A program made the position numbers and the translations under genes. A stretch of 64,000 nt of DNA, from positions 104,496 through 168,495 of the forward strand of contig CALRDH010000003.1 in NCBI GenBank assembly GCA_943354835.1, read 5' to 3'. This stretch comes from a candidate division WWE3 bacterium (GTDB lineage Bacteria; Patescibacteriota; WWE3; 2-01-FULL-39-13). Every line of letters starts with the position of its first letter. Positions within the stretch are counted from its first letter, which is position 1. This document shows, piece by piece, positions 31,093-48,481 of the stretch. The notes under the pieces were generated by a model. That model saw nothing but the letters and a program-made list of their open reading frames with translations. It had not been told where the DNA came from and did no database searches.

Positions 31093-32031
31093 ATGCAAAA
31101 AGATTCTAAAATTTATATAGCAGGACACGCGGGTTTGATGGGGGCTGCTATTATAAGAAGGCTTAAGGCAGATGGCTATACGAATTTGGTTTATAAAACT
31201 CACAGTGAGCTTGAGTTAATGGACGATGTTGCAGTTGATAATTTTTTCAAAAATGAACAACCAGAGTATGTGTTCTTATTTGCCGCTAAAGTTGGAGGAA
31301 TTATTTCAAATCGCGACCATCCAGCAGAATTCCTTTATGAAAATTTAAAGATTGAACTTAATGTGATAGGAAATGCGCATAAATATAAAGTTAAGAAGTT
31401 AATGATGCCAGGATCTACTTGCATATATCCAAAACTTGCAGAGCAACCACTTAAGGAGGAAAGTTTATTGGCTGGCCTTCTAGAACCAACTAACGAAGCA
31501 TATGCAATAGCAAAGATTTCAGGAATAAAACTTTGCCAATCTTTTAATAAACAATATGGCACGAATTTCATATCAGTAATGCCAACAAGTATTTATGGAC
31601 CAAATGATAATTTTGATCCTGCCGAATCACACGTTATTCCAGCGCTTATAAGAAGATTCCATGATGCGAAAATTAACAAACTTGAATCTGTTGTAATGTG
31701 GGGAACGGGAACTCCAAGACGCGAATTTATGCATGTAGACGATATGGCCGATGCACTTGTTTATCTTATGAATAACTATGATGGGTCTGAACTTATAAAT
31801 ATTGGTATGGGCAATGATATTCCAATTAACGATTTAGCATCGGGAATAGCAAAGGTCATCGGATATGAAGGCAAAATTGAGCATGATTTAACAAAACCAG
31901 ATGGAACGCCAAGAAAACTTGTCGATACAAGTAAACTAGATGAAACTGGATGGAAGCCAAAAGTAACACTCGAAGATGGGCTCAAAGAAACATACAAATG
32001 GTTTTTGGGGAATATTGTAAACAAAGAATAA
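31093..32031 (+). CDS. fcl: GDP-L-fucose synthase-type GDP-4-keto-6-deoxymannose 3,5-epimerase/4-reductase (Fcl/ColC family)
   Basis: KIYIAGHAGLMGAAIIRRL...VFLFAAKVGGIISNRDHPAEFLYENLKIELNVI...PGSTCIYPK is the classic Fcl signature. The track ORF starts earlier, at 31054. Confidence 0.85.
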   Translation: MQKDSKIYIAGHAGLMGAAIIRRLKADGYTNLVYKTHSELELMDDVAVDNFFKNEQPEYVFLFAAKVGGIISNRDHPAEFLYENLKIELNVIGNAHKYKVKKLMMPGSTCIYPKLAEQPLKEESLLAGLLEPTNEAYAIAKISGIKLCQSFNKQYGTNFISVMPTSIYGPNDNFDPAESHVIPALIRRFHDAKINKLESVVMWGTGTPRREFMHVDDMADALVYLMNNYDGSELINIGMGNDIPINDLASGIAKVIGYEGKIEHDLTKPDGTPRKLVDTSKLDETGWKPKVTLEDGLKETYKWFLGNIVNKE

Positions 32032-32032
32032 G

Positions 32033-32527
32033 CTAAATCGATTTTAATATCTTCTGAATTATCTTCGTTGAAGAAATATTATCATACTGATCCGGACATT
32101 TCCTTTCCATAATAACCATTTCAACCTTGTATTTATCAATAATTCCACGTCTAAGATCCATATTAAAACCATCAGAATTAACCGCGTAAATGTCTGGTCT
32201 AAGAATACTTAATGCAACGTCAAGCGAACTTAACGGAACATTGAACTCCCCAAGAGTGTCTATGTATGCATAATCAACAGGCTTAAGCGAACTTATCATT
32301 TTCACCCTTAAATATTCATTAAGAATAGGCCTCCCTTCACCTTTATTATATTTAATAATTGCATCACTACCCACACCAACAATAAGTATGTCTCCGAGTT
32401 TTTTTGAATCTTCTAAAAAAAGGATATGACCTGCATGAGTTAAATCAAATGATCCTGTACACAAAATAATTCTCTGATTATAATGTCTCGATCTTATATT
32501 AGGTAAATCTTTTGGATCAATAATCAC
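32033..32527 (-). CDS. Cytidylyltransferase-like nucleotidyltransferase (RfaE domain II / TagD-like)
   Basis: 164 aa. ...IILCTGSFDLTHAGHILFLEDSKKLGDILIVGVGSD is the HxGH nucleotidyltransferase motif. Confidence 0.65.
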   Translation of the reverse strand: MIIDPKDLPNIRSRHYNQRIILCTGSFDLTHAGHILFLEDSKKLGDILIVGVGSDAIIKYNKGEGRPILNEYLRVKMISSLKPVDYAYIDTLGEFNVPLSSLDVALSILRPDIYAVNSDGFNMDLRRGIIDKYKVEMVIMERKCPDQYDNISSTKIIQKILKSI

Positions 32528-32545
32528 AAGACAAGTTTACAACAT

Positions 32546-33391
32546 CTAGCCAATCCTGTTTTTAATCTCACGATCTACGATCTCTGGCAGTTCGTATGGC
32601 TCAAAAACTGTCATTTCAGGGTTTCTGTCTAAAATTACATCAGTCAAAAGTTCTTGTATTCTAGTACTGCATTCTTCCTGGGCTTGAGAAGTCGTTCTGC
32701 CACCATAAAATCTTCTACCGTCTTCATCTTCTTTAGCATATCGTATTCTATTCCCTGCTAATCTTTGATTTAAAGCATTGCTCATACTTCCGCCTTCATT
32801 ACGAACAACTCCAGGAACCCATTTAGATCCATCAGTATAATCATCAATATAATGTTGCACTAAAAATGCTATTTTGACATCGTGGTCAGACGTAAGGCCA
32901 ACTTCGTTGGCTTTAATTAATTCATTCAAGACATCTTCTGAAGCTAAAACACCTTGAGCTCCAGATGCACTTGCAATAAATTTCGCTTTAGATGAAATTG
33001 AAGCTTGCTCTTTTAGAATTTCAGCGCTCAAACCTGTAACTGTATTCTGTTTTTCTTCTGGAGTTCCATCAACCTCACCACTTCTAATTGATGTAATTTC
33101 CTGCTTTTTTCTAAAATCATGAACACCAGCAGCTACCATTGCATTATGCTTTAAATCTGGGGGAAACCCGAGTAAATCAGCAAATATCTCTGCTCTCGCA
33201 GCTTCTACCAAACAATGTTCCGTAACATTCCCCCATCCTCTTTTTATATGCTCACCCTTGAACTCCTCAGAGTCATAATGCCCATGTTCTACGTGCAAAT
33301 CAATTGCGGGATGAATACGCCTTCCAATATTTGCAAAATAGATTGATTTTCTATTTTCGAAATCAGATTTAAGTTCTAAATCTTCAGACAT
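32546..33391 (-). CDS. Hypothetical protein, possible HD-domain phosphohydrolase
   Basis: 281 aa. An H...HD arrangement (TEHCL...AAGVHDF). No stronger assignment possible by eye. Confidence 0.3.
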   Translation of the reverse strand: MSEDLELKSDFENRKSIYFANIGRRIHPAIDLHVEHGHYDSEEFKGEHIKRGWGNVTEHCLVEAARAEIFADLLGFPPDLKHNAMVAAGVHDFRKKQEITSIRSGEVDGTPEEKQNTVTGLSAEILKEQASISSKAKFIASASGAQGVLASEDVLNELIKANEVGLTSDHDVKIAFLVQHYIDDYTDGSKWVPGVVRNEGGSMSNALNQRLAGNRIRYAKEDEDGRRFYGGRTTSQAQEECSTRIQELLTDVILDRNPEMTVFEPYELPEIVDREIKNRIG

Positions 33392-33465
33392 AATAGCGTA
33401 GTATTAACACATTGAATTCAAAAATCAAAAAAACTAAGCACATCATTCTATAACAATCACAGTAT

Positions 33466-34197
33466 GTGATAGTATTTGAATTATTAATGGTAGCAATTAA
33501 TTCAATACTAGAAGATTTAGGTTCAAAATCAATGCAAGATGAACCATTTCTATATCATCGAGATCATTCACATTCTTTAGATTCGATACAAAATATAGGA
33601 ATGCCAAAAGGTGGAAGAGGACTTGCTGAATACGAAGCGACATTAAATTTTAATAGAGATGAATTACAAAATAAAACAGTACTAGATCTAGGGGCAGGCC
33701 CCAGATTAAAACTATATAACGAATTAAAAGACATTGGCGCGCACGTAATTTCAATGAGCCCCGATTTTTCAAACCCAGTACATGCAATTAGAGCACGAAT
33801 ATCGACTGATTTACGAGGCAAAGACAACATGGTCGCAGCCGTCGGACAAAGGATTCAATTTCAAGACGAAACATTTGATGCAGTGTTTGCATTGAATTGC
33901 CATATACCATTTGGAACAACAATACTCAGGGCGACACTATCAGAAATGGCCAGAATTCTTAAAAAGGGTGGTACGGCAAGAATTGGACCTTTTTATGAAG
34001 TCCCACATCATCCAAATCTTTTCAGAAAATTTATAGAAATGGATCCAAACATGACTGAGGTGCTCAATCATTACAGAGTCCAAACAGTTGCTGAAGCAAT
34101 TCCTACCAGCATAGTACCAATGATGCTAGTGTCAGATGATGATGGCGATAAAGCGATGGAACCATCTTTTAAAATTGTAATGCGGAAATCTATTTAG
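33466..34197 (+). CDS. Class I SAM-dependent methyltransferase
   Basis: VLDLGAGPRLKLYNEL (motif I) and ...DAVFALNCHIPF. Confidence 0.6.
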   Translation: MIVFELLMVAINSILEDLGSKSMQDEPFLYHRDHSHSLDSIQNIGMPKGGRGLAEYEATLNFNRDELQNKTVLDLGAGPRLKLYNELKDIGAHVISMSPDFSNPVHAIRARISTDLRGKDNMVAAVGQRIQFQDETFDAVFALNCHIPFGTTILRATLSEMARILKKGGTARIGPFYEVPHHPNLFRKFIEMDPNMTEVLNHYRVQTVAEAIPTSIVPMMLVSDDDGDKAMEPSFKIVMRKSI

Positions 34198-34229
34198 CTG
34201 TTATTTGCGACTTCCATAAAATATAAAAT

Positions 34230-35327
34230 GTGGTTATTATCATGTGTATGAAACAGGACAAGACAAAAAAAGCACTTATATCAGGCATCAGCGGTCAAGA
34301 TGGTTCATATTTAGCCGAACTTCTTTTACAAAAAGGTTATGAGGTTCACGGAATCAGACGAAGGACAAGCCTTTTTAATTCGGCACGATTTGATCATCTA
34401 TTTGATCATCTATACGAAGAAGCACAAGACCCCGACGCTAAATTGCATCTTCACTATGGCGATCTATCAGATTCATCTTCATTATATAAAATTGTTTCCG
34501 ACGTAAAACCCGATGAAATTTATAATCTTGGGGCCCAAAGTCATGTCGGAGTAAGTTTTAATATTCCAGAATATACAGGTGACGTAGTAGGACTTGGAGT
34601 TGTAAGACTTCTTGAAGCAATAAAACAATCAGGCTGTAATGCAAAATTCTACCAAGCATCTTCAAGTGAAATGTTTGGAAAAGTTCTAGAAACACCACAA
34701 AAAGAAACAACACCATTTTATCCAAGATCACCATATGGTGTCGCAAAAGTTTATGCATACTGGATAACAAAAAACTATAGAGAAAGTTATGGGATGTTCA
34801 CGTGTAACGGCATTTTATTTAACCATGAATCTCCACGTAGAGGAAGAACATTTGTAACAAGAAAAATCACACGTGCAGTTGCTTTGATATTACAAGGTAA
34901 GTTGGAAACGCTTTACTTGGGCAATTTAGACTCATCACGCGACTGGGGCCACGCAAAAGACTATGTAAATGCTATGTGGCTCATGATGCAACACAAAATC
35001 CCAGACGATTACGTTGTCGCTTCTGGTGAAACACACACTGTAAGAGAATTTGTAGAAAAAGCGTTTAAATACGTAAATATAGATATCGTTTGGCATGGCA
35101 AAGGGGTGGATGAAATTGGAATAGACAAAAAAACAAAAAAAACACTGGTAAAAAGCGACCCAATATACTTTAGGCCAGCAGAAGTCGAATTATTACTCGG
35201 AGATCCGACTAAAGCAAAAAAAGAGCTTAAATGGAAAATGCAATATACTTTCGATGAAATGATAAATGAAATGATGGAATTTGACCTTACAAACGAAGCG
35301 AAAAAAAACGGATATTTAGATTATTAA
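34230..35327 (+). CDS. gmd: GDP-mannose 4,6-dehydratase
   Basis: [21 protein letters not shown]...[12 protein letters not shown]...[13 protein letters not shown]...[10 protein letters not shown]...[10 protein letters not shown] is the unmistakable Gmd pattern. Confidence 0.9.
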
Positions 35328-35341
35328 TTGCAAATACGAAT

Positions 35342-36205
35342 ATGACAAAAGTTAAAGTGATTGATCTTCAAATCAAAGGGACTAGAATCCGTCGTGATGT
35401 TATTGACTTAGTAACAAGATCCCGCGATGGTCATATTCCATCTGCACAATCAATGGTAGAAATTTTATCCGTCCTTTATTATCACATTCTCAACGTAGAC
35501 CCGAAAAACCCAAATAAACCTGATAGAGATAGATTTATACTTAGTAAAGGGCATGGATGTGCTTCACTATATGCAGTATTGGCAGACTTGGGGTTTTTCC
35601 CACGATCTGAATTAGAAAAATACGCAACAATGAGTGGTATATTGGGTGGTCACCCAGAAATGCAAAAAGTTCCTGGAATCGAAGTTTCAACAGGATCACT
35701 CGGGCATGGATTTCCAATGGGGGTTGGCATGGCAATGTCAGCAAAACTAAATAATCAAAAGCACAAAGTATATTGCGTAGTTGGCGATGGCGAATGCAAC
35801 GAAGGAACTATATGGGAAGCTGCTAATATCTCCGCACATTTTAAACTTGATAACCTTGTTGTGATTGTTGATCACAACAAGCAACAAGCTAGTGGTGACG
35901 TTTTTGAAATAATGAATCCACACCTACTTTCTGAAAAGTGGAAATCATTTGGATGGGAAACTATTGAGTTAGATGGACACAACATAGAAAGCCTACATAA
36001 AGCTTTTACATCACTTCCATTTAAATCTGGAAAACCTTCAGCAATAATTGCAAATACCATAAAAGGAAAAGGCATTTCATTTATGGAAAACGAAAGAAGA
36101 TGGCATACAGCAATTCCAAACGAAGAAGAATTTAAATTAGCAATGGCAGAACTAGATGAACAAGAAAAACAACTAACGAAGATAAAAGGAGGCAGTAAAA
36201 AATGA
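35342..36205 (+). CDS. Transketolase, N-terminal (ThDP/PP-domain) subunit of a split enzyme
   Basis: ...ILSKGHGCASLYAVLADLGF...GSLGHGFPMGVGMA...VVGDGECNEGTIWEAANISAHFKLDNLVVIVDHNKQQ. Confidence 0.85.
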   Translation: MTKVKVIDLQIKGTRIRRDVIDLVTRSRDGHIPSAQSMVEILSVLYYHILNVDPKNPNKPDRDRFILSKGHGCASLYAVLADLGFFPRSELEKYATMSGILGGHPEMQKVPGIEVSTGSLGHGFPMGVGMAMSAKLNNQKHKVYCVVGDGECNEGTIWEAANISAHFKLDNLVVIVDHNKQQASGDVFEIMNPHLLSEKWKSFGWETIELDGHNIESLHKAFTSLPFKSGKPSAIIANTIKGKGISFMENERRWHTAIPNEEEFKLAMAELDEQEKQLTKIKGGSKK

Positions 36206-37134
36206 GAAAAGCATTTGTGGAAGCGATATCAGAGATCCTAGACACTAACGACAAAGCATTGCTTCTGATTGGAGATATTGGTGCATACCTTCTAAAAGAT
36301 ATTAGTGCAAAACATCCAAATAGAGTAATAAACATGGGCATTGCAGAAGCTGGAATGATGAGTGCAGCAGTAGGTCTTGCACTAGAAGGGTGGATTCCAT
36401 TTGTTTATACAATAACGCCGTTTGTAACCGCAAGAGCGTACGATCAAATTAGAGCGGGTGTTGGATATCATGAAGCCAATGTAAAAATAGTTGGTATCGG
36501 AAGTGGCCTTTCATATAGTGCACTTGGTGGAACACACCATTCAATAGAAGACATAGCAATGATGAGATCAATACCTGGAATGACAATCATTTCCCCATCA
36601 GATGGACCAGAAACAATACAGGCAACAAAAGCTACAGCAAATCATTTTGGACCTGTTTACCTTAGACTAATGTTAAATGTTGAACCATTAGCTATTGATA
36701 TTAAACGCAAAGAATTCAAAATAGGACAAGCTAAAAAACTTTCGAATGGCAAAGATTTAACAATAATTGCAACTGGAGAACTCGTGAAAGAAGCTTTGGA
36801 CGTTTCCGCTATGTTGCAAAAAGATAAAATATACGCAAGCATAATAAATATGAGCACGATTAAACCAATCGATAAAAAAACTATCGAATCTGAAGTTATA
36901 TCCGCACCTATTATATTCACACTCGAAGAGCACAATGTTATTGGTGGATTAGGATCAGGAGTAGCAGAAGTTATTTCTGAATCAAAGCTAAAATCAAAAC
37001 CACGATTAGTGCGACTCGGAATTCAAGATAAATTCACAAATAAATATGGCCATAAAAGCGAACTCTACGAATATCTGAATCTTGACGCGAAAAGTTTATA
37101 TAAAAGGGTTAAAAAGGAAATTAAAAATGGATAA
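36202..37134 (+). CDS. Transketolase, C-terminal (Pyr-domain + C-terminal domain) subunit
   Basis: ...INMGIAEAGMMSAAVGLALEGWIPFVYTITPFVTARAYDQIR.... 4-nt overlap with the N-terminal subunit gene. Confidence 0.85.
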   Translation: MRKAFVEAISEILDTNDKALLLIGDIGAYLLKDISAKHPNRVINMGIAEAGMMSAAVGLALEGWIPFVYTITPFVTARAYDQIRAGVGYHEANVKIVGIGSGLSYSALGGTHHSIEDIAMMRSIPGMTIISPSDGPETIQATKATANHFGPVYLRLMLNVEPLAIDIKRKEFKIGQAKKLSNGKDLTIIATGELVKEALDVSAMLQKDKIYASIINMSTIKPIDKKTIESEVISAPIIFTLEEHNVIGGLGSGVAEVISESKLKSKPRLVRLGIQDKFTNKYGHKSELYEYLNLDAKSLYKRVKKEIKNG

Positions 37135-38200
37135 ACATCTTGGAATTATATATTCGGATATAAAAGAAATAGCTCACGAAATCTCAAATATTTCAAATAA
37201 ACTTTCAGGATCAACAATAGTTATTACAGGTCCAAATGGTCTTTTAGCAAGCTACATCGTTGACACAATAGCATACTTAAATTCCGAAAAAATTCTAGAA
37301 AAACCATGCAAGGTAATCGGCCTTCAAAGGTCGGAAATAGACAAAAATAGCAGACTTGGACATTTATTAAAACGAAAAGATATAAAACTCATCCAACATG
37401 ACGTTATTGAACCATATAAATTCGCAGAAAAAATCGACTACATAATTCATTCGGCAGGAAGATCAGCCCCTGCAACTTTTCAAAGCGACCCACTTGGAAC
37501 AATTGATGTAAACGTTAAAGGTGTTAGATGGCTTCTTGATTTCGCAAAAGAAAATCCTGTAAAAAGCTTTTTATATATGAGTTCGGGTGAAACATATGGA
37601 AATCCAACACCTGAAAATATTCCAACCCCAGAAACATATGCAGGAAATGTATCAACATTCGCACCACGAGCATGCTACACAGAATCAAAAAGGCTTTCAG
37701 AAACGTTGTGCAATGTGTATTTCCAGCAGTATCAAATTCCAGTAAAAATAGCTCGTCCATTCATAGTATATGGACCCGGACTTCCAATTACTGACAGAAG
37801 AGTCATGGCCGATTTTATGAGGCTTGGGATCGAGGGAAAACCGATAGAAATGCTTTCAGAAGGCTTAGATAAACGGTCTTATTGTTATATCTTGGATGCA
37901 ACAGTGTTATTTTTCAACATGCTCCTTTCGGATTATAACGGTGAAGCTTTCAACGTCGCAAACGACACAGAAGAAATAAGCATTAGAGACTTAGCAGAAA
38001 ACATACATAATATTTGCGGAATTAAAAGTCCCGTTACTGTAAAAAAGACAGAAGACACTAAATTCATATCAGATGCTCCTAAACGCGTTTTGCCTGATAT
38101 TTCAAAAGCTAAAAAACTACTTGGATACAAACCAGAGATTGGGATTCGTGAAGGACTTAAAAGAACAATTGAATGGAACCGGGCTTTTTTCAAAAAATAA
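37127..38200 (+). CDS. NAD-dependent epimerase/dehydratase, UDP-glucuronate decarboxylase (UXS/ArnA-CTD)-like SDR
   Basis: IVITGPNGLLASYIV (Rossmann) and ...YGNPTPENIPTPETYAGNVSTFAPRACYTESKRLSE (the UXS-type YxxxK region). The start is at the ATG overlapping the previous stop. Confidence 0.75.
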   Translation: MDKHLGIIYSDIKEIAHEISNISNKLSGSTIVITGPNGLLASYIVDTIAYLNSEKILEKPCKVIGLQRSEIDKNSRLGHLLKRKDIKLIQHDVIEPYKFAEKIDYIIHSAGRSAPATFQSDPLGTIDVNVKGVRWLLDFAKENPVKSFLYMSSGETYGNPTPENIPTPETYAGNVSTFAPRACYTESKRLSETLCNVYFQQYQIPVKIARPFIVYGPGLPITDRRVMADFMRLGIEGKPIEMLSEGLDKRSYCYILDATVLFFNMLLSDYNGEAFNVANDTEEISIRDLAENIHNICGIKSPVTVKKTEDTKFISDAPKRVLPDISKAKKLLGYKPEIGIREGLKRTIEWNRAFFKK

Positions 38201-39144: not shown

Positions 39145-40941
39145 ATGTGCGGCATAGCAGGAATCATTAACGGAAATAAAAACTCAAAAAAAACTTTGCA
39201 AAAAATGATGCATTCTATAAAGCATAGAGGCCCCGACGACAATGGAACATTTTGCGATGAACATGCTGGTGTATATTTCGGATCGCAAAGATTAAGCATC
39301 AACGACTTAAGCCCTAAAGGTAAAATGCCAATGTTTAGTGAAGATAAATCGATTACAGTATGCCAAAATGGAGAAATATATAATTATCACGAATTGAAAA
39401 ACGAACTTTCGACACATGGCCACAAATTTATTTCAGGATCAGATACAGAAGTTATCGTACACGGGTATGAACAATGGGGAACAAATATTTTTAAAAAACT
39501 CCAAGGCATGTTTGCAATCGCAATTTATGACATTAAAAATCATACAGTAATACTCGCAAGAGATAGAATTGGCATAAAGCCTTTGTACTATTTAAGACAT
39601 AAAGATTCAATGTATTTTTCATCTGAAGCTAAATCATTTTCTTCAATTAATGATTTTTCATTTGGAAACAATATTGACTATGAGAATATTAATTTAATGT
39701 TGGGATTCATGTTTCTACCTAAATCCGATGAAACAATAGTCAAAGGAATAAAAAAATTAGAACCAGGTCATTTCATGAAAATTGACCTTAAAAAAAGCTC
39801 ATCGGGAGACATAAGCATACACAAATACTGGGATATAGAAAATTCAAGTAATAAATTAATCTCAAAAGACTTAAGTTTCGAGGATGCAGTAAATGAACTC
39901 GACAAACTGTTACAAAAAACCGTTTCATCACATTTAATGTCAGATGTTCCACTTGGAGTTATGTTATCTGGTGGTCTTGATTCATCATTAATCACGGCCT
40001 TAGTAAAAAAGCTGTCTACATCAGAAACATTAACATTCACTGCAAAATTTGCACATAAACTTAATGAAAGCGAAAACGCAAGAAGTATTGCAAATTACCT
40101 TAAGACGAATCATAAAGAAATTTTAATCGATACAAAAGACGTAAGCGCAAACATAGAAAAGCATATAAGAAATTATGATGACCTAACAACTTTTGATGGT
40201 GGACTTATAACAACAAAAATACTATGTGATGAGATAAAAAAACTTGGCGTGACGGTTCTACTTTTAGGGGAAGGCGCGGATGAAATATTCGGGGGTTATT
40301 CCTGGTTTGGGATTTCGCAACTCCCCTACTCTTTCTTGCCAGATATATTTAAATCTGCAATTTATTATTACGCAATCTCAAGAAACGTAACATTTAATCC
40401 TCAAACATATTATTCCTATTGGAACAAAATGTTCAAATCAATGCACAATTCGGACACATTCAAAAATGTCAGTAACCTGGAATTAAAAGCTCAACTTCCG
40501 AATCATTTGTTAATGAAAGTAGACAAAGCAACAATGGCAGCTTCCGTAGAAGCAAGAGTTCCATTTTTGGATCACAAAGTAGTAGAGTTTGCATATAATC
40601 TTCCTCGTGAATATAAACTTAAAGGAAATATGTACAATTTCAACTCTTCAAATGAAAAATATATATTAAGAAAAGTCGCTGAAAGATATCTTCCACAAGA
40701 AGCCGTATGGAGAAAAAAACGAGGATTCATGCTTCCAATGGGACAAGTACTTGATTCAGACATATCAAAAGTCAAAGATTACATGTTCTCGAAAGACTCA
40801 ATTTCATCAAAACTATTATCAAAGAAACAAGTAGAGAATTTATTTATAGAATCACCTATTGGGATTATGAAAATGCAAAAAGAATATCTAATCTGGAGAT
40901 TATTCCTTCTTGAAGTTTGGAAAAAGGAATATGCAAGATAA
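39145..40941 (+). CDS. asnB: Asparagine synthetase B-type glutamine amidotransferase
   Basis: MCGIAGII (Ntn Cys2), ...RGPDD..., and the PP-loop LSGGLDSS. Confidence 0.88.
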   Translation: MCGIAGIINGNKNSKKTLQKMMHSIKHRGPDDNGTFCDEHAGVYFGSQRLSINDLSPKGKMPMFSEDKSITVCQNGEIYNYHELKNELSTHGHKFISGSDTEVIVHGYEQWGTNIFKKLQGMFAIAIYDIKNHTVILARDRIGIKPLYYLRHKDSMYFSSEAKSFSSINDFSFGNNIDYENINLMLGFMFLPKSDETIVKGIKKLEPGHFMKIDLKKSSSGDISIHKYWDIENSSNKLISKDLSFEDAVNELDKLLQKTVSSHLMSDVPLGVMLSGGLDSSLITALVKKLSTSETLTFTAKFAHKLNESENARSIANYLKTNHKEILIDTKDVSANIEKHIRNYDDLTTFDGGLITTKILCDEIKKLGVTVLLLGEGADEIFGGYSWFGISQLPYSFLPDIFKSAIYYYAISRNVTFNPQTYYSYWNKMFKSMHNSDTFKNVSNLELKAQLPNHLLMKVDKATMAASVEARVPFLDHKVVEFAYNLPREYKLKGNMYNFNSSNEKYILRKVAERYLPQEAVWRKKRGFMLPMGQVLDSDISKVKDYMFSKDSISSKLLSKKQVENLFIESPIGIMKMQKEYLIWRLFLLEVWKKEYAR

Positions 40942-42049
40942 AAATGTATTATTTTTGGTTCACCGAATATTTAATAATGATATTGTAAAAAGAGGCGGAG
41001 CGGACTACATTACAGACTTTTTAATTTCAAAAGGATATTCAATAATAACAATCGAACACCCATTAAATGGTTCGCACGAGTCATATATTAAAACCAATAA
41101 AAGCGCAAAGACATTTAAACTCTTTGGGAAAGGCCCAATAAGGTGGATTCAAGAAATTATATTCAACTTTATAAATGCTCCACGTACGCATGTTAAATTA
41201 ATCATCTCCGTAGACCCTCTTAATTTTTTATCGGCATACTTAATAAAAATAGTTAACAAGAAAAAGTTAAAAATATTGTTTCATTCAATAGACTACTCTG
41301 AAAGTAGGTTTGGAAGCTCTATGCTTGATTACGTATACAATTCACTATATTCGTTTGCTGTTAGAAATGCAGACATTGTTACATATGTAAGCGAACTCAT
41401 GGGAGATAAAATTAAAGAGATAATAAAACTAAATGCAAAAACTGAAAATATCTTATTTCACCTTCCCAATTCACCCGAATTTAAAAAAATTCCTAAAATC
41501 GATATTTCCAAAAAAAATAAGTATTCAATTGTATACAGTAAGTCGTTTATATCAAAAGAGGAATTAATATTATTAGAAAATATAGTAACCATATTAAAAA
41601 AGAAATTCCCAGATATTGTTCTAAACATTGTGGGAAAAATTGATGGGACAACTTATATTATAAGTCCCAAAATAAAAAACAATATAATGGCACATGGATT
41701 AGTCCCTTATGAAAGAAACCTAGAAATAATAAGCGGTTCATACCTCGGGCTTGGTTGGTACGAAAATAAATTTTCATTTGAAAAATATAATGATTCATTA
41801 AAACTTAGAGAATATGCCGCTTCTGGAATTCCTGCGGTTTGTAATGATAAGACATCAACAGCAATTGAAATGGAAAAAGAAGAAGCAGGAATTGTCGCGA
41901 ATACAGAGGCGGAAATCGCTACTGCGATTTCCGCCTTAATTGAAAATCCAAAGAAGTATTCTGAAATGAGAAAGAATGCTTTGTATTGGGCAAAAAAGAA
42001 TGATAAAGCTAAATTACTCGAAAGGTTACTTAACAAATTGAGTCTATGA
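40931..42049 (+). CDS. GT-B glycosyltransferase (GT4-like)
   Basis: The C-terminal ...EYAASGIPAVCNDKTSTAIEMEKEEAGIV... is a GT4-like nucleotide-sugar pocket. Confidence 0.6.
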   Translation: MQDKNVLFLVHRIFNNDIVKRGGADYITDFLISKGYSIITIEHPLNGSHESYIKTNKSAKTFKLFGKGPIRWIQEIIFNFINAPRTHVKLIISVDPLNFLSAYLIKIVNKKKLKILFHSIDYSESRFGSSMLDYVYNSLYSFAVRNADIVTYVSELMGDKIKEIIKLNAKTENILFHLPNSPEFKKIPKIDISKKNKYSIVYSKSFISKEELILLENIVTILKKKFPDIVLNIVGKIDGTTYIISPKIKNNIMAHGLVPYERNLEIISGSYLGLGWYENKFSFEKYNDSLKLREYAASGIPAVCNDKTSTAIEMEKEEAGIVANTEAEIATAISALIENPKKYSEMRKNALYWAKKNDKAKLLERLLNKLSL

Positions 42050-42069: not shown

Positions 42070-42831
42070 TCACTTGTTTTTGATTTTTTGAGCTACTATA
42101 AATATGGATGTCCCTATTGGTAAATTAATAAAGTTAAGTAAATAGTTTTCGAAATACATAACTTTAGTTAATATTTTATTTATAATAGGATTAGCTTTAC
42201 TAACATCATCTTCGGCTTTTTTTGACGATAATAAATAGTACATTTTATTTACTATTTTATAAATAACTAATAGTGGGAAAAGTAAAAATACCCTGTAGCT
42301 ACCTTTTATTATTTTATAGTTATGCGATTCTAAGTCTTCAATCAGCTCATTTAGCATAAACCTTTTTTTTACATGCCAACTAACATCATGATTTGAAAAT
42401 AAAAATGGCAAAGCGGCTGTGTTGATAATTAGATATCCATTTAGTCTAGTGCATCTTGTGAATTCATTTAGCGCTAAAATGTATTCTTTTGGCGAAAGGC
42501 ACGCCAATACATCCATACAGCATATACAGTCAAAAGATGAGTTTTTATAAGGTAGCTTTGATATGTTTGCTTTCAAAACGTCAGTAATTCCTCTTTGTTT
42601 GCAAAATTGAATTGCTACATCTGATGCATCAAATCCGCATACATTATAATTTTCAGATCTTAAAAATTGCAGGTTTTCTCCAGTTCCACACCCTGCATCA
42701 AGAATTACTTTAACATTCGTAGATTTTATATATGAGATTAATAAGTTTCTTAGTCCAAGGTACCACCAATGGCTATGTTCATTTTCATACATATTTTCGT
42801 AAACTTTATTTTCTAGTTGCAATTTTTTCAC
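42070..42831 (-). CDS. Class I SAM-dependent methyltransferase
   Basis: VKVILDAGCGTGENLQFL...VCGFDASDVAIQ. Confidence 0.75.
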   Translation of the reverse strand: MKKLQLENKVYENMYENEHSHWWYLGLRNLLISYIKSTNVKVILDAGCGTGENLQFLRSENYNVCGFDASDVAIQFCKQRGITDVLKANISKLPYKNSSFDCICCMDVLACLSPKEYILALNEFTRCTRLNGYLIINTAALPFLFSNHDVSWHVKKRFMLNELIEDLESHNYKIIKGSYRVFLLFPLLVIYKIVNKMYYLLSSKKAEDDVSKANPIINKILTKVMYFENYLLNFINLPIGTSIFIVAQKIKNK

Positions 42832-45190
42832 TTCAATTTTTTAATAAGAATTAAGCTTACGATAAATGAAATTATGGAGATTATCATCCCTAAGTATAAT
42901 AATTTTGGCACATATATAAATTCGACATCATGTTTTCCATTCGTCAAAAGTATCCCCCTTGAGGTTAAATTGGTTTTATAAATTTTTGTCGGTTTTCCAT
43001 CTATATAAGCTTGCCAACCAGGATAGTAAGTATTACTTAGTACAAGCAATGAATCATCAATACTTTTTACATCAATTTTGACTTTACTGTTACTATAATG
43101 ATAAATATTTGCGTAAGAACCAGGTTTTTGATTGTCAAATAGTGGCAGATTGGAATCAGAGATTACAACTGCGGTTCTTCTTAAATCTAGTGAGCTCATC
43201 TTTTCTAATGCTTCTTTCGATGTTTTTACCTTTAATATATTTTCTGTAATAAAAGCCATTGGAAGTCTATCAGTATTTTCGTAGACGTAGATTGGTGTTC
43301 CAACTGGAAGTACAGTACCAGTTCTTAAAATGAATTTACCTGAATCTTCCTCACGAATAGGTACCGCTTCAATTAGATCAAGACCATTCGGGAGTTTCTC
43401 TGCAAATGGCTTGCTAGTAAAAATGTATTGGACTGCTAATATATCAAATAATTGCGAGTCTGGACTTACACTCCAATCAGCTTCCTGAAAGTGGTTGTAT
43501 AGTAGGTTGTAATCTTTTAATGTAAGGCCATGGAAACCTTCTGTTTGATATATTTCAGAACTTGCGGTATTAAATCTATTTGTTTCCTCGAAAAAATATG
43601 CACGTGTTAAGTTATTTCTCATTTCAGTTGAGTATTTCTTGGTTATCGTATTTTCACTATAGAAAACCCTTGGATCTTGTGTTGAATTTATAAACGCAGA
43701 CTTGGAAATTAAAGTGAATAAGTCAAGAAGGATTAAAACAACCAGTGAGAATTTAAAAATACTTGGGTTTATATATTTTTTAAACCGGAACAGTATATAG
43801 GTTGGTATAAAAAATACAAAAAATAAACTCAAACCATCAGTAATATTATTTATATCCACAGGGTTCCCCCCTATAGCCTTAAGTATTAATCCGACAAAAA
43901 TCGATATAAAATAAATGAGTATAAAAAGCAATGTTAAGGCTTTTAACCATGTAGCTACGCTTTTCGGGAATTCGTGCTCTAATAAATATGTATATCCATA
44001 ACCTGCTAAGACGGCAAGGCTAAAGGCTGTGTATATATGTATGAATGTTAGGAATCTGAAATATCCGTAAAAAGGGATAAATAAATATGCGAATTGATGT
44101 AAAAAAGTAATATTCCCAAGCGATAAAAGTGTAAATACAAACGCCGATATGAAAAAGAAACTAACTGCTTTTATTTTGATCAGTTTTAAACCTATGGCAA
44201 CCAATATTAGTCCAGCTGTGCTTATATAACCTATTACTGCTGGACCTGTCTGTGCACCATAATAGTACGGTAATAAATAATTAAGCAGACCTCTTAATTC
44301 CATTGAAGCACTTGCAGATCCTGTGATATTTAAATGTTCCCGTATTGCAATATTTTGAAGCTCAAAGGCTGGTAAAAAAGTAACAGCAGAAATTGATATC
44401 CCGATTGCACAAGCAATTAAAAGGCTTTTAATGATTCTGCCTAATGATTTTATATCTTTTGCGAAAAAGAAAATGACTAAAAATGCGATAAATAAATTAT
44501 TATGGAGAAAAAATGCTGTATATCCACCAAGAAGGAGACAAGATGAGACTAATCCTGAAAAAATAGCTTGCCTGTAAGATCTGTTTGTATCGATTTATAC
44601 ATGAAGTAGAGTTGTAGCGGCATTAAAGCTGGTCCACTAATTGGATTTGAAAATATTCCTACATATATCATGCTACCGCTTAGGCCAAATATAATCCCAG
44701 AAATGAATGCGGGAAATGGTTTGAACATCAGACATTTTCTTAGAAAGATATATGTGAATAGGCTTGCCAGTGATAGATGAAATACTGAATAGTATGTAGC
44801 AAGAAAAACTAATAAATTTTGCGGACTAAGGAGTGAAACTAAGTAGAAAATAAACCGGACTGGATAAAATATCGATACTCTGTCTAACCCTCCAATTAAT
44901 GGAAATCCAGTGAAATTATAGGGATCCCAAAGAGAATCAGTAGCATTTTTAATAGATAATATCGCTCTGGTTGCAGAAACGCCTTGCAGAAAATCTGGGT
45001 AGTAATACCCTAAAAAATCGACATGAAAATACACAGTATTAAATCCAGTAATATCAAAATTTCTCCAAAATCCAATGATTGGTAATATGAAAAATAATAG
45101 AATCCATATAATGTTTTTATTCGCTTGTAATTTCTGAATGATTTGGTCTACGAGTTGATAGATTTTTCCCAACACCAAAAGATTATACAT
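42828..45190 (-). pseudogene. YfhO-like polytopic membrane glycosyltransferase-family gene, apparently split by a -1 frameshift in a T6 (plus-strand A6) homopolymer
   Basis: ORF 44549..45190 (213 aa, multi-TM) ends ...GKLFFQD*. Another frame runs open, without a Met, from just downstream of that stop (…LVSSCLLLGGYTAFFLHNNLFIAFLVIFFFAKDIKSLGR…SASASMELRGLLNY…) into ORF 42828..44303 (491 aa). Adding one T to the T6 run (plus A6 ~44558-44563) fuses them into a ~785-aa protein. A C-terminal extracytoplasmic domain plus terminal TM (…DVEFIYVPKLLYLGMIISIISFIVSLIL) is YfhO-like. Confidence 0.5.
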
Positions 45191-45248
45191 ACGTTAATAG
45201 TCGATAGCCAATAGGTATAATAATCATGTTCCATATTGAACTTCAAAA

Positions 45249-45277
45249 CTGTCAAAATCAAAATTTATAAGTATAAT
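45249..45277 (+). promoter_or_regulatory. Candidate promoter (CTGTCA -35, 17 bp spacer, TATAAT -10), giving a near-leaderless transcript for the GT2-GtrA gene
   Basis: ctgtca at 45249-45254 and tataat at 45272-45277. The ATG is at 45287, only ~10 nt past the -10, with no SD. Confidence 0.25.
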
Positions 45278-45286
45278 TAATGATAA

Positions 45287-46504
45287 ATGAATCTACGGCT
45301 TTCTTCTTTGACCATATTTTTTCCGTTTTATAATGATGCTGGCACAGTCAAAAAAATGCTTGACCAAGCATATGAATATGGATCTCTCGTAACAAATGAT
45401 CTTGAGGTAATCGCACTAAACGGTGGAAATTCAAAAGACAATACATATCAAGAAATTCTAAAATTTCAAAAATTAAATCCTTCGGTAAAAATTGTAAATA
45501 AAAAAGATAATGTCGAAGGCTATGCCGTCATAAAACATGGGCTATACTCTTCCACAAAGGATTTTGTTTTTTATACTGACGGCGACGCACAATATAGCCT
45601 AAAATCTGATTTCTTAAATCTTATCAAAAAACAAAACGATACAAATGCGGATGTAGTAAATGGACACAAAAAAGACAGAAAGGATAATATTTTCAGGATT
45701 TTATTCGGTTTTTTATACGCCACTTTTAGCAGAGTGATTTTTAAATCACCAATTACGGATATTGACTGTGACTTCAGATTGATACGGACATCTATTCTAA
45801 AAAGATTTAAGCTAGAAAGTCACGATGCATCAATCCTGCCAGAGCTTGTTCTTAAGCTAAAACTAAATGGTGCGAATTTCTCCGAAATTCCCGTCAGCCA
45901 TTTTCCAAGAGAATATGGCAAATCAAATTACACTGCATTTTCACTATTTAAAGAGAAGCTGGCTGGTGATTTTAAGTTATACATAAAGATGAGAAAAGAA
46001 ATAAAAAATATTGACATCAATTTATTCGAATTTACATTGTCATATTTAAAAAACAGCGAGAATTTCATATCAAGCTTTTTACGTATAGATAACTTTAAAT
46101 TTATTAAATTCGGCTTAGTTGGAGTTAGTAGTGTCATATTGCATTTTATATTTTTTAATATATTTATGTTATTAACTAATTTAAACACAGGATTAATAAC
46201 GATCGTATCAGACCAATTACCGATATTGACGTCGTATATTTTGAACAATAACTATACATTTAAGAAAATCAAAGATGTATCAAGTAATCGAAAACATCCG
46301 ACTAGGTTTATAAAGTACTGGTCAATAATAATGATTTCAACTGTGATACACAGTATCATTATTACATCAGGAATTTATATTTTCGGTGATACGATTTTAA
46401 TTGCGAATATATTCTTTATTGCTGGAGTAATAATTGCCATGATTTGGAATTATTATTTTCACAGTACATTGATTTGGAAAGCTTCTATAGAAAAAGGAAG
46501 ATAA
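45287..46504 (+). CDS. GT2 glycosyltransferase fused to a C-terminal GtrA-like 4-TM domain (CsbB/GtrB-like polyprenol-phosphate sugar synthase)
   Basis: N-terminal GT2 (LTIFFPFYNDAGTV...FYTDGDAQY). C-terminal FIKFGLVGVSSVILHFIFFNIF...IAMIWNYYFHSTLIWK is GtrA-family. Confidence 0.75.
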   Translation: MNLRLSSLTIFFPFYNDAGTVKKMLDQAYEYGSLVTNDLEVIALNGGNSKDNTYQEILKFQKLNPSVKIVNKKDNVEGYAVIKHGLYSSTKDFVFYTDGDAQYSLKSDFLNLIKKQNDTNADVVNGHKKDRKDNIFRILFGFLYATFSRVIFKSPITDIDCDFRLIRTSILKRFKLESHDASILPELVLKLKLNGANFSEIPVSHFPREYGKSNYTAFSLFKEKLAGDFKLYIKMRKEIKNIDINLFEFTLSYLKNSENFISSFLRIDNFKFIKFGLVGVSSVILHFIFFNIFMLLTNLNTGLITIVSDQLPILTSYILNNNYTFKKIKDVSSNRKHPTRFIKYWSIIMISTVIHSIIITSGIYIFGDTILIANIFFIAGVIIAMIWNYYFHSTLIWKASIEKGR

Positions 46505-46592
46505 CTTTGCTGGTTTACCTAGAAAGAGAATATTTCGATTTTGCATTTTTTCTGCTATGGTTTTGATAAAGTCATTTAGTATGATTAATTAA

Positions 46593-47210
46593 ATGAAAAA
46601 AAACGAGAAAATTATAGTAAACCTAGGGTGTAGCGGATCAAGGATTCCTGGCTCTATTGGGGTAGACGTCATACCAAGAGAAGGTACTGTTGATATAGTT
46701 CATAATCTAAATAAATACCCATACCCCTTTAAAGAAAATTACGCTGATGAAATCCATTTATACCATGTACTTGAACATTTAGATGATTCAATCAAAACAA
46801 TTGAAGAAATTTACAGGATACTAAAACCAGATGGAATTTTATATTTGAGAGTTCCACATTTCAGCAGTTTATACGCCTGGGGTGATATAACGCATAAAAA
46901 AGCTTTTTCAATTTATGCGTTCGATATTTTCGACGCAAATAGAGATTATAAAAAATGGGGATATACCAAAGCTAAATTCGAAATTCTAACCAGAAAAATC
47001 AGATATTTTTATACATGGCCAAACGAAGACTGGTACATGAAATACATAGTCAAGCCAGACTGGCCATTTGGGGCCGGAATAATATTGAAACCAATTATTA
47101 CTTTACTAAATTTTCTAATCAATTTGTCACCAGAAATATTCGAAAGATTTTGGTGCTATTGGGTTGGTGGCGCTGCTGAAATATACTTAATCATGAAAGC
47201 TAAAAAATAA
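46593..47210 (+). CDS. Class I SAM-dependent methyltransferase (Methyltransf_11/23-like)
   Basis: VNLGCSGSRIPGSIGVDV...YHVLEHLDD...LKPDGILYL. Confidence 0.55.
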   Translation: MKKNEKIIVNLGCSGSRIPGSIGVDVIPREGTVDIVHNLNKYPYPFKENYADEIHLYHVLEHLDDSIKTIEEIYRILKPDGILYLRVPHFSSLYAWGDITHKKAFSIYAFDIFDANRDYKKWGYTKAKFEILTRKIRYFYTWPNEDWYMKYIVKPDWPFGAGIILKPIITLLNFLINLSPEIFERFWCYWVGGAAEIYLIMKAKK

Positions 47211-47266
47211 TGGGCTTGTTAGACACAAAGAATATCATGTAGAATGCAATATAGTTCACGAAGTTA

Positions 47267-48481
47267 ATGCGGAAAGGAAAATTTAAAGTGGAAGATTTAA
47301 AAGTAAAATTAATAAAAGATACTTTCTACAACGAAGCACAAACAAAAAAAGAATTATGTGATTTCATAATGAAAACAGATCGTTTGAGTATGTGGACAGA
47401 GTGTAGAAAGTTTGAAGATAATTTCGCAAAGCACCAGGGAGCAAAAAACTGCTCCATGTTCACAAGCGGAAGTACCGCAAACCTAGCATTAATTCAATCA
47501 CTTATAAATCTAAAAAGATTAGAAAAAGGAGATACAGTTGCGTTTTCCGCTGTCACCTGGTCTACAAATGTAATGCCAATGCTACAACTTGGATTAAATA
47601 TTCATCCGGTTGATGTTGAAGTTGATACCTTAAATAGTTCAGCTGAATTATTCGAAAAAGCATTAGAAGAAAATCCGTCAATAAAGGCTTTCTTTATAAC
47701 CAACGTTTTGGGATTTTGTTCTGACATAGATAAAATTGCTGATATATGCAAAAGTCGAGGAATTATCCTTATAGAAGATAATTGCGAATCTTTAGGAACT
47801 ATTTATAAAGGTAAAAAACTTGGATCATATGGACTTGCGGGAACATTCTCTTTTTACGTAGGCCATCACATGTCTACAATTGAAGGCGGGGCATTATGTA
47901 CCGACGATGCAGAATTAGATACCATGGTTAAAATGGTTCGGTCACACGGAATGGATAGAAACTTAGACGAAGACAAAAAAATAAAAGTCAGAGAAAAATT
48001 CAAACTTGATGATTTCTATTCGCGATATACATTCTATACTCTTGGTTATAATTTAAGACCAAATGAAATCAACGGCTTTTTGGGAAACAATCAACTTCAA
48101 TACATTGACGAAATCTTTAGAATTAGAAATGAAAATTTCATGAAATTTATATCTGCCGTAAACAAAAATGATATTGTACCAATCCGATATAATCATATAG
48201 ATTTTGTTTCTAATTTCGCATTTCCAGTTATCTGCAAAAACAAAACTATTTTGAATAAATATATAAAGGTATTCGAAAATGCAGGAATAGAAATTCGCCC
48301 AGTCGTTAGCGGAAATATGATGAATCAAATATTCATAAAAGATTACGTAGGTAGTAAAAAGTTCGACCTACCAGGCGCACAAAAAATACACGAAGATGGA
48401 TTTTACTTCGGGAATAATCCCGACATGACAAAAAAAGAGATCAATATAGTTATAAAAGCGTTTAAAGATGCCAGTAAGTAA
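47267..48481 (+). CDS. DegT/DnrJ/EryC1/StrS-family PLP enzyme with His at the Schiff-base Lys position (sugar 3-dehydratase candidate, ColD/E1-like)
   Basis: The fold-type I sugar aminotransferase pattern is (...MFTSGSTANLALIQSLI...). The conserved SFxxxKxxxxGEGG is FSFYVGHHMSTIEGG here, so His replaces the Lys that sits 6 residues before EGG. Confidence 0.7.
   Translation: MRKGKFKVEDLKVKLIKDTFYNEAQTKKELCDFIMKTDRLSMWTECRKFEDNFAKHQGAKNCSMFTSGSTANLALIQSLINLKRLEKGDTVAFSAVTWSTNVMPMLQLGLNIHPVDVEVDTLNSSAELFEKALEENPSIKAFFITNVLGFCSDIDKIADICKSRGIILIEDNCESLGTIYKGKKLGSYGLAGTFSFYVGHHMSTIEGGALCTDDAELDTMVKMVRSHGMDRNLDEDKKIKVREKFKLDDFYSRYTFYTLGYNLRPNEINGFLGNNQLQYIDEIFRIRNENFMKFISAVNKNDIVPIRYNHIDFVSNFAFPVICKNKTILNKYIKVFENAGIEIRPVVSGNMMNQIFIKDYVGSKKFDLPGAQKIHEDGFYFGNNPDMTKKEINIVIKAFKDASK

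Follow-up and report, generated by a model that had tools for sequence, protein, structure and literature searches.

A putative ColD-type sugar 3-dehydratase and a PDH-E1-like thiamine enzyme pair share an operon in a surface-glycan locus of a WWE3 bacterium

Background

Acyl-branched sugars are known as CDP-linked sugars of lipopolysaccharides (LPS), for which the enzyme is of the YerE type, and as dTDP- or UDP-linked sugars of antibiotics, for which the enzyme resembles the E1 component of pyruvate dehydrogenase (PDH-E1). To our knowledge, the surface glycans of Patescibacteria are essentially uncharacterised. Here we analyse a 64,000-nt stretch of the genome of a candidate division WWE3 bacterium (GenBank assembly GCA_943354835.1, contig CALRDH010000003.1, positions 104,496 to 168,495), referred to below as the window, in which a DegT-family gene (47267..48481) very probably encodes a sugar 3-dehydratase of the ColD type and lies in one operon with a PDH-E1-like pair of genes for a thiamine diphosphate (ThDP) enzyme. 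A first-pass annotation of this DNA had combined the gene with gmd and an fcl/colC-like gene into a single GDP-mannose deoxysugar module, and all three open reading frames (ORFs) were found where it had placed them. In the following, E1 alone denotes the 3-dehydratase of Yersinia, and E1-alpha and E1-beta denote the subunits of the PDH-E1-like pair.

Yersiniose A is made by 3-deoxygenation through E1 and E3, ThDP-dependent addition of an acetyl group at C-4 by YerE and reduction by YerF (PMC9306805). The pathway that we propose for the window would follow the same course, with a 4-keto-3,6-dideoxyhexose, a C2 branch introduced from pyruvate at C-4 by a ThDP enzyme and an NAD(P)H-dependent reduction (PMC9306805, PMC5399914). 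However, yersiniose is CDP-linked, and its synthesis employs the iron-sulfur enzyme E1 with E3 as well as YerE, a single-chain ThDP flavoenzyme of the acetohydroxyacid synthase type, whereas the window has a predicted ColD-type dehydratase, a GDP-sugar context and a heterodimeric PDH-E1-like pair. Such heterodimers are represented by the alpha-KADH2 enzymes, which work without E2 (lipoyl acyltransferase) and E3 (dihydrolipoamide dehydrogenase) and transfer a pyruvate-derived C2 unit onto the carbonyl of a nucleoside diphosphate (NDP)-linked keto-sugar; examples come from the paulomycin, avilamycin/everninomicin, aldgamycin, kosinostatin and kibdelomycin pathways, and in one case, KbDH, ketone analogues served to show the C2 transfer in vitro (PMC4802897, PMC10338323, PMC12247030). 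The actinomycete enzymes belong to secondary-metabolite clusters and to dTDP- or UDP-sugars, whereas the pair in the window stands in a surface-glycan locus of a member of the candidate phyla radiation (CPR) and is linked to a ColD-type gene. In addition, split transketolases have been proposed, though never shown, to introduce hydroxyacetyl branches in miharamycin and amipurimycin (PMC12247030). In the window, too, genes for the two transketolase parts, TktN and TktC, lie between a keto-sugar producer (gmd) and a gene for a short-chain dehydrogenase/reductase (SDR), but in a WWE3 genome, while all 13 predicted split-transketolase cases are from Streptomycetes and none of them has been characterised (PMC12247030).

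With respect to the dehydratase itself, it is above all the replacement of lysine by histidine that sets 3-dehydratases apart from aminotransferases, and E1 and SpnQ have a four-cysteine 2Fe-2S motif, which ColD lacks (review PMC8987622). The C3-dehydratases of Campylobacter jejuni HS:5 and HS:11 are likewise ColD-family enzymes acting on a GDP-4-keto sugar, GDP-6-deoxy-4-keto-heptose, but what they make is then epimerised and reduced and receives no branch (PMC10440746). Since they are 62-67% identical to E. coli ColD, they fall into the canonical clade. As shown below, the protein of the window belongs to a separate, mainly patescibacterial clade with an internal identity of about 55-60%.

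Results

More than 5,000 homologues of the product of 47267..48481 were scored, 530 genome loci were found and 84 related loci were read; labels such as L001 and L002 denote related genome or metagenome stretches that were compared with the window. The ORF encodes 404 amino acids (aa) and matches PF01041 with 203 bits. Its residues 194-208 read FSFYVGHHMSTIEGG, and the SF(Y/H)xxK motif that carries the Schiff-base lysine in DegT/DnrJ/EryC1 sugar aminotransferases is absent, the column being occupied by a histidine. In the HMMER alignment to E. coli ColD, which has no gaps over residues 35-238, FSFYVGHHMSTIEGG lies opposite ColD FSSFYSHHIATMEGG, and His200 corresponds to ColD His188. The latter is the first histidine of the ColD pair, as fixed by the crystal mutants H188K, H188N and S187N/H188K, and is the residue altered in the H188K/H188N mutants 2r0t and 3b8x. 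In the MAFFT alignment, the column of His200 also holds ColD His188, E1 His220 and, from a DegT aminotransferase of the lysine type encoded in a related locus (L090:4132-5229, motif FSFYPTKNLGALGDAG), Lys189. Thus, the claim that histidine replaces the lysine that binds pyridoxal 5'-phosphate (PLP) was upheld by both alignments, a multiple alignment having been recommended as a check of the His/Lys column. The same alignments have no lysine within or beside FSFYVGHHMSTIEGG, and therefore the objection that the lysine is merely displaced by an indel fails; the aminotransferase and shifted-lysine readings were rejected on this ground. The VGHH motif was unchanged in all 84 related loci, which are mostly patescibacterial, and throughout the 21-sequence alignment A1.

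Which type of 3-dehydratase the protein resembles was apparent from searches of solved structures, in which E. coli ColD scored 214 bits (E = 2.6e-62), Yersinia E1 141 bits, a putative NDP-4-keto-6-deoxyglucose 3-dehydratase 120 bits and the best sugar aminotransferase no more than 82 bits; hence, the protein stands nearest to ColD and further from E1 and the aminotransferases. An AlphaFold2 model, likewise advised by the first-pass annotation, reached a predicted local distance difference test (pLDDT) value of 86.5 and a predicted template modelling (pTM) score of 0.88, and its 12 best Foldseek matches were ColD chains (TM 0.79-0.84), ahead of any aminotransferase or E1. The fold is shared with ColD (WbdK) of E. 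coli O55 and Yersinia pseudotuberculosis (PDB 2gms, 2r0t, 3b8x, 3gr9), as are the histidine in the lysine column, the second histidine after it, the missing Fe-S motif and the occurrence of gmd in the locus. Moreover, D171, E174, S195, H200 and H201 match ColD D159, E162, S183, H188 and H189, and R231, N262, R264 and R344 match R219, N248, R250 and R331; these are residues of the active site and the substrate region of ColD. Among the ColD residues checked, only S187 differs, being Gly in the protein of the window. Further differences from ColD are the identity of only 35% (over 356 aa, to genomic E. coli O55 ColD) and the gene context, in which a thiamine enzyme follows instead of ColC. The cysteine insert of E1, DCYCAPGCDNTC, has no counterpart in the alignments, where the protein has MDRNLDEDKKIKV, and the E1-type reading was rejected because of the absent cysteine motif and the scores. 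Scores, fold, residues and the missing Fe-S motif make it very probable that 47267..48481 encodes a sugar 3-dehydratase, specifically of the ColD type, for which chemistry with pyridoxamine 5'-phosphate (PMP) and glutamate, no Fe-S cluster and a GDP-sugar context are predicted. The interpretation of the histidine as the mark of a 3-dehydratase homologue thus held and could be narrowed to this type.

The ColD-like gene opens a series of tightly packed genes, with spacings of -14 to +6 bp from 47267 to 60487, in the order ColD-like gene, Methyltransf_24 gene, E1-alpha, E1-beta, the extended SDR gene SDR2, two GT4 glycosyltransferase genes and genes for large membrane proteins (Table 1). Directly before it, the small methyltransferase-like protein is 88-97% identical and equally placed in relatives. 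The Methyltransf_24 gene, which shares its first 14 bp with the end of the ColD-like gene, is optional: it is found in L003, L088, L089 and L090 and missing in L001 and L002. Apart from this gene, the order ColD, E1-alpha, E1-beta, SDR and glycosyltransferase is kept in L001-L004 and L088/L089. E1-alpha has the GDG-X26-NN motif for ThDP binding, and in E1-beta the cofactor-activating Glu (of SEN) and the active-site His (of AQHSQ) align with those of human PDH E1, while the 64 kb of the window contain no gene for E2 or E3. The best solved relative of SDR2, the proposed branch-ketone reductase, is human UDP-glucuronate decarboxylase (133 bits), with which its Ser/Glu/Tyr/Lys/Arg residues align. 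However, the SDR2 orthologue in L090 has Ala at the Glu position, and the SSGE Glu of SDR1 and SDR2 is therefore no guide to decarboxylase or dehydratase function.

These data raise the question of whether the link between a 3-dehydratase and this thiamine enzyme is peculiar to the window. Starting from the ColD side, it was seen in one of 80 distant patescibacterial loci, L038 (Wildermuthbacteria), with the order ColD-like gene, 4,6-dehydratase, E1-alpha, E1-beta, Fcl-like SDR, HddA-like kinase, RmlC-like epimerase and GmhB/nucleotidyltransferase genes. Starting from E1-beta, metagenomes yielded a high-GC group with the order E1-alpha, E1-beta, ColD, SDR, in which ColD is of the canonical SHH type (YSFFFSHHISTMEGG), and the same cassette occurs in an alphaproteobacterial genome and in Azospirillum thiophilum. 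A search of plasmids added Solidesulfovibrio magneticus RS-1 pDMC1, where radical SAM, NUDIX, kinase, E1-alpha, E1-beta, "GDP-L-fucose synthase", DegT, SDR and nucleotidyltransferase genes follow one another in this order; its DegT protein has histidine in the lysine column (YVAHIISTIEGG) and a cysteine-rich, E1-like segment, GCSCPSC. In a neighbour-joining tree of 72 E1-beta sequences, one clade was recovered in all 100 bootstrap replicates (100/100) with exactly the same 16 members, namely the window clade, the alphaproteobacterial group, L038, L090, S. magneticus and a single gene from a Streptomyces plasmid. The last of these is the closest cultured E1-beta relative found (52.5% identity). 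Outside the clade are the E1-beta sequences annotated beside E2/E3 (Aminobacter acetoin dehydrogenase, Agrobacterium), which were taken from annotated plasmid examples, and about 50 others. A regular-expression search for a lipoyl E2 beside E1-beta in the metagenome loci, which is an insensitive one, gave a single match. All clade members but L090 and the Streptomyces plasmid gene (14 of 16) adjoin a His-type 3-dehydratase, and these dehydratases are of three subtypes: ColD-like in CPR, canonical ColD in Alphaproteobacteria and E1-like in Solidesulfovibrio. It is mainly for this reason that we consider the dehydratase and the thiamine enzyme to work together.

Several related loci differ from the window in their further gene content. 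L038, L162, L163 and L165 share an HddA-like GHMP kinase (57% identity between L038 and L165), a nucleotidyltransferase, a NUDIX gene and an orthologous 315-aa SDR. The kinase and nucleotidyltransferase of L038, L162 and L165 suggest heptose, which recalls the GDP-heptose enzymes of Campylobacter, and cassettes outside WWE3 may more generally use a heptose-type or otherwise kinase-activated substrate rather than GDP-mannose, as this gene content suggests. In L090 (4132..10107), the slot of ColD is taken by the lysine-type DegT aminotransferase, and an Fcl orthologue (64%) stands right before E1-alpha; this module is probably a variant making an amino-branched or differently processed sugar. 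Radical SAM genes lie near E1-alpha/E1-beta/dehydratase cassettes of an alphaproteobacterium (L162 12541..14031) and of S. magneticus (L165 4885..6390), and the glycan locus of the window contains a B12-binding, HpnJ-like radical SAM enzyme (24712..26364, plus strand; 165 bits). Such enzymes may methylate the sugar at a carbon atom or modify it by some other radical reaction.

The ColD-like family as a whole was then viewed in its usual surroundings. Four metagenomic homologues are 84-91% identical to the protein of the window, followed by a broad plateau at 53-65% made up mostly of metagenome-assembled genomes of Patescibacteria (Levybacteria, Gottesmanbacteria, Roizmanbacteria, Woesebacteria, Pacebacteria and Saccharibacteria). 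A Gmd orthologue (at least 50% identity) lies within 10 kb of the ColD-like gene in 11 of the 84 loci and directly upstream in five, and an SDR of the Fcl/ColC superfamily follows directly downstream in about 24, although these SDRs reach only 150-286 bits on the Fcl model. Thus, the usual neighbourhood of ColD-like genes in Patescibacteria is colitose-like, and the gmd and ColC-like neighbours tie the clade to the chemistry of GDP-4-keto-6-deoxymannose. In another patescibacterial locus, L042, an E1-type (cysteine-rich, PAHQ) and a ColD-type homologue occur side by side (7578..8807 and 9998..11173), about 1.2 kb apart with one glycosyltransferase gene between them and a split transketolase upstream.

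As for the other two genes of the presumed module, the identification of gmd as unambiguous was confirmed by a TIGR01472 score above the cut-off (Table 1); its start may be an ATG at 34242 or 34248 rather than 34230. The fcl-like ORF was called by the program as 31054..32031 with a GTG start, and the ATG at 31093 (MQKDSKIYIAGH) agrees with the N-termini of solved GDP-fucose synthases, to which the protein scores 375 bits. Against reference sequences from the O-antigen region of E. coli O55:H7 CB9615, which also supplied ColD, it is 54% identical to Fcl (358 bits) versus 41% to ColC (243 bits). The NCBIfam model GDPFucSynFcl gives 470 bits, just below its cut-off of 500, and by direct reading of the sequence a Cys and a His align with the catalytic pair of E. 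coli GDP-fucose synthase. A ColC assignment was rejected on the two identities, and 31093..32031 is best read as Fcl, for which a ColC-like side activity is possible. The gene belongs to a different transcription unit, 15 kb away from the ColD-like gene. L001, a close relative, has an 87% identical fcl orthologue that overlaps gmd as a classical GDP-fucose pair, whereas three genes are inserted between fcl and gmd in the window. Fcl and Gmd probably make GDP-L-fucose separately. Since the gene is an Fcl orthologue, is 15 kb away and is coupled to gmd in L001, and since the ColC slot is otherwise filled, Gmd, Fcl and the DegT-family protein probably do not form one colitose module. Of the earlier description as an fcl/colC-like epimerase-reductase, therefore, the Fcl type stands and the ColC orthology does not. 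Likewise, of the suggestion of a colitose-like 3,6-dideoxyhexose "or related deoxysugar", the second half is the better one because a methyltransferase, the thiamine pair and an SDR occupy the ColC-like slot; the ColD-type enzyme and its operon agree with a related deoxysugar, and the type and distance of the Fcl gene speak against the colitose module. Between fcl and gmd, on the minus strand (32033..33391), are two genes, of which one is cytidylyltransferase-like (RfaE domain II-like, 82 bits) and the other encodes a 281-aa protein without a family match; this opposite-strand insert is absent from L001, where fcl and gmd are adjacent.

Downstream of gmd, at a distance of +14 bp, begins a cassette of split transketolase genes, TktN and TktC (spacing -4 bp), and SDR1, a paralogue of SDR2 with 54% identity. 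The arrangement of a keto-sugar producer, a ThDP enzyme and one of two paralogous SDRs occurs twice in the window. In L001 and L002, the stretch from gmd to the methyltransferase gene does not include the cassette, which therefore behaves as an accessory module. Further glycan loci of CPR bacteria (L042, L068 and L011) likewise have a split transketolase beside an SDR. The context suggests that TktN/TktC and SDR1 could attach a hydroxyacetyl branch to the Gmd product and thereby make a second branched sugar; this reading is the weaker of the two because a housekeeping role of the transketolase in the pentose-phosphate pathway is compatible with the sequence.

Discussion

The evidence on the window can be combined into the following pathway. 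Gmd would yield GDP-4-keto-6-deoxy-D-mannose, on which the ColD-like enzyme would form a PMP-sugar Schiff base; His200 would take the C4' proton, the 3-OH would be expelled, and hydrolysis would give GDP-4-keto-3,6-dideoxy-D-mannose and ammonia, with glutamate regenerating PMP. In this lineage, the 4-keto product would then pass to the co-transcribed PDH-E1-like alpha/beta enzyme instead of simply being reduced to colitose. After decarboxylation of pyruvate, this enzyme would add the hydroxyethyl-ThDP carbanion at C-4, leaving a 4-C-acetyl branch whose ketone SDR2 would reduce; the Methyltransf_24 enzyme may methylate the sugar, and the downstream glycosyltransferases would install it. What would result is an analogue of yersiniose linked to GDP, namely a possibly methylated 3,6-dideoxy-4-C-(1-hydroxyethyl)hexose of unspecified stereochemistry. 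We infer the substrate nucleotide, the carbon-carbon coupling, the part played by SDR2 and the nature of the product from sequence and gene context, and for the pathway in full (Gmd, ColD, acetyl branching at C-4 and reduction, leading to a branched dideoxy sugar on GDP and not to plain colitose) we regard the chances as evenly balanced.

The classical route to colitose would use the same first two enzymes, with the Fcl-like protein acting as ColC to give GDP-L-colitose and the thiamine enzyme working on a different substrate. It agrees with the presence of all three genes in one glycan locus, with the homology of Fcl and ColC (41% identity for the window protein) and with the gmd, colD, ColC-like SDR arrangement of the ColD-like gene in most Patescibacteria. 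However, the window protein is closer to Fcl, its gene is remote from the ColD-like gene and coupled to gmd in L001, the family-typical ColC-like gene downstream of ColD is replaced by the Methyltransf_24, E1-alpha, E1-beta and SDR2 genes, and the linkage of ColD to this E1-beta clade recurs across phyla; we therefore consider the colitose route unlikely, while still giving it some weight. A somewhat smaller probability attaches to a logic like that of eurekanate synthesis, in which SDR2, and by paralogy SDR1, would be a UXS/ArnA-like 4-oxidase/decarboxylase that makes the NDP-4-keto acceptor, and the ColD-like enzyme would serve a separate deoxysugar or modify the SDR-made keto sugar. The relationship of SDR2 to human UDP-glucuronate decarboxylase, including the five aligned residues, speaks for it, as does the everninomicin/avilamycin precedent, where the UDP-4-keto-xylose used by a PDH-like ThDP enzyme comes from a glucuronate decarboxylase (PMC10338323). 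Nevertheless, the window has no UDP-glucose dehydrogenase gene, the L090 orthologue of SDR2 has lost the catalytic Glu, other lineages have unrelated SDRs in the cassette, and a 4-keto-sugar producer is already encoded directly upstream of each thiamine enzyme, by gmd in the case of the transketolase pair and by the ColD-like gene in that of E1-alpha/E1-beta. This makes the eurekanate-like scheme rather improbable.

The remaining alternatives concern the dehydratase. That the His-type enzyme acts after branching, or like an aminotransferase on the branch ketone as in kibdelomycin, and not on the Gmd product, could be argued from L090, where a lysine-type DegT aminotransferase fills the same slot, and from the transamination of branch ketones in kibdelomycin (PMC12247030). 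Yet it is the histidine in place of the lysine that defines the 3-dehydratases, wild-type E1 and ColD lack transferase activity under conditions in which SpnQ has it (PMC8987622), and the checked ColD active-site residues are all kept except S187, so that we hold this to be quite improbable. Still more so is a CDP-sugar 3-dehydrase of the E1/RfbH type that needs an E3 reductase as a partner: RfbH is the best NCBIfam model for the protein, and some homologues carry the source annotation "CDP-6-deoxy-D-xylo-4-hexulose-3-dehydrase", but the score of 206 bits is far under the cut-off of 423, so that the equivalog level is not reached, the 2Fe-2S cysteine motif is missing, ColD outscores E1 by sequence and by fold, and neither CDP-glucose pathway genes nor an E3-like reductase gene were seen within the window.

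Several observations weigh against the branching pathway that we propose. SDR2 is closest to UDP-glucuronate decarboxylase with the catalytic residues kept, and these residues would fit a role in generating a 4-keto-sugar rather than in reducing a branch; moreover, the cassette SDRs of the different lineages are not orthologous. The specificity for GDP is deduced from gene context, and the window contains neither manB nor manC. In L090, whose E1-beta is 69% identical, an aminotransferase replaces the ColD-like enzyme and Fcl is next to E1-alpha; the thiamine enzyme is therefore not strictly dependent on a 3-dehydratase partner. The clade member on the Streptomyces plasmid pSGRIFU1 stands in a nonribosomal peptide synthetase context with no sugar genes. 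Fcl-type genes recur by this E1-beta clade (L090, L165 and L038), and for this reason the Fcl of the window may take part in the pathway. Finally, Plm8/Plm9 (Pau11/12), AviB1/B2, EvdU5/EvdS3 and KbDH-alpha/beta, which are likewise PDH-E1-like pairs without E2/E3 among nucleotide-sugar genes, were likened to the pair of the window by description.

Taken by itself, a ColD homologue would add one more ordinary member to a known family; the novelty lies in its conserved coupling to a dedicated clade of thiamine enzymes and in the second, transketolase cassette. We tentatively propose a GDP-linked route to C-branched sugars that crosses phyla, in which a His-type 3-dehydratase feeds a dedicated PDH-E1-like clade that lacks E2, together with the transketolase cassette as another means of branching. 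If this is true, bacteria of the candidate phyla bear two unknown branched deoxysugars on their surfaces. In the literature we found neither GDP/ColD-coupled branching nor such a pathway in Patescibacteria, although the survey of Krug et al. (2024), with about 120 alpha-KADH2 clusters, may already list such cassettes of Gram-negative or CPR bacteria, and nothing relevant was found on GDP-linked yersiniose-like sugars. The gene set amounts to a directly testable four-enzyme pathway (Gmd, the ColD-like enzyme, E1-alpha/E1-beta and SDR2), and because the E1-beta clade is represented in the cultured Azospirillum thiophilum and Solidesulfovibrio magneticus, the prediction can also be tested in growing organisms. 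The gene set is also a potential new source of ketone-accepting ThDP carboligases, which are wanted as biocatalysts for tertiary alcohols.

Other features of the window

The window is a chromosomal stretch with a GC content of about 0.33, and an Rfam scan of its whole length gave no match. The product of its glycyl-tRNA synthetase gene shares 91% identity with the enzyme of a candidate division WWE3 bacterium, and its further relatives are without exception patescibacterial, in keeping with an origin from a CPR bacterium of the WWE3/Katanobacteria type. From about 13.6 kb to its end it consists of one large surface-glycan locus, which encodes an initiating sugar transferase, a Wzx-like flippase, many GT2 and GT4 glycosyltransferases, GT-C/PMT-like and Wzy_C-like membrane proteins, methyltransferases, the B12-binding radical SAM enzyme and an AsnB-type amidotransferase. 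The trio of methyltransferase, AsnB and GT1 genes that follows SDR1 is conserved in L001-L004 and L090. The features discussed are collected in Table 1.

Table 1 Coordinates of the annotated features in the window
Feature	Position	Strand	Basis or remark
Glycyl-tRNA synthetase	11644..12987	-	
Fcl-type GDP-L-fucose synthase (3,5-epimerase/4-reductase; best reading)	31093..32031	+	NCBIfam, identity, solved homologues
Gmd, GDP-mannose 4,6-dehydratase	34230..35327	+	TIGR01472 548 bits (cut-off 415); PF16363 499 bits
Split transketolase, TktN	35342..36205	+	Pfam Transketolase_N 175 bits; NCBIfam transketolase 287 bits
Split transketolase, TktC	36202..37134	+	Transket_pyr 115 bits and Transketolase_C 85 bits; NCBIfam transketolase 207 bits
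SDR1, extended SDR	37127..38200	+	PF01370 129 bits; program ORF start 37082 (TTG)
Class I methyltransferase	from 38073, likely start 38202	+	Pfam
AsnB-type glutamine amidotransferase	39145..40941	+	TIGR01536 466 bits
GT1-family glycosyltransferase	40910..42049	+	Pfam
Small methyltransferase-like protein	46593..47210	+	Pfam Methyltransf_23/11; directly upstream of the ColD-like gene
Putative ColD-type PMP-dependent sugar 3-dehydratase	47267..48481	+	His200 replacing the Schiff-base Lys
Methyltransf_24-family S-adenosylmethionine-dependent methyltransferase	48468..49301	+	PF13578 33.5 bits
PDH-E1-like alpha	49304..50269	+	TIGR03182 299 bits
PDH-E1-like beta	50272..51327	+	PRK09212 322 bits
SDR2, extended SDR	51334..52419	+	Proposed branch-ketone reductase
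Two GT4-type glycosyltransferases	52409..54791	+	PF00534 68 and 67 bits; spacing -11 and +4 bp

A few further genes of the minus strand deserve mention. A YfhO-like membrane protein is encoded in two pieces, 42828..44303 and 44549..45190 (together 42828..45190), beside a minus-strand methyltransferase gene; as L001 and L003 have a plus-strand gene for 1003-1110 aa at this place, this part of the locus is rearranged in the window. A CofD-like gene (2-phospho-L-lactate transferase family; 18347..19388) appears as the overlapping ORFs 18347..18715 and 18669..19388, which would be due to either a frameshift or a sequencing error. The stretch 5664..11018 encodes a 1220-aa Ig-like/fn3 protein with a GC content of about 0.44, compared with 0.33 for the window, followed by KilA-N and Bro-N genes, and has the appearance of an insert of mobile or phage origin that separates the dcw genes from glyS.

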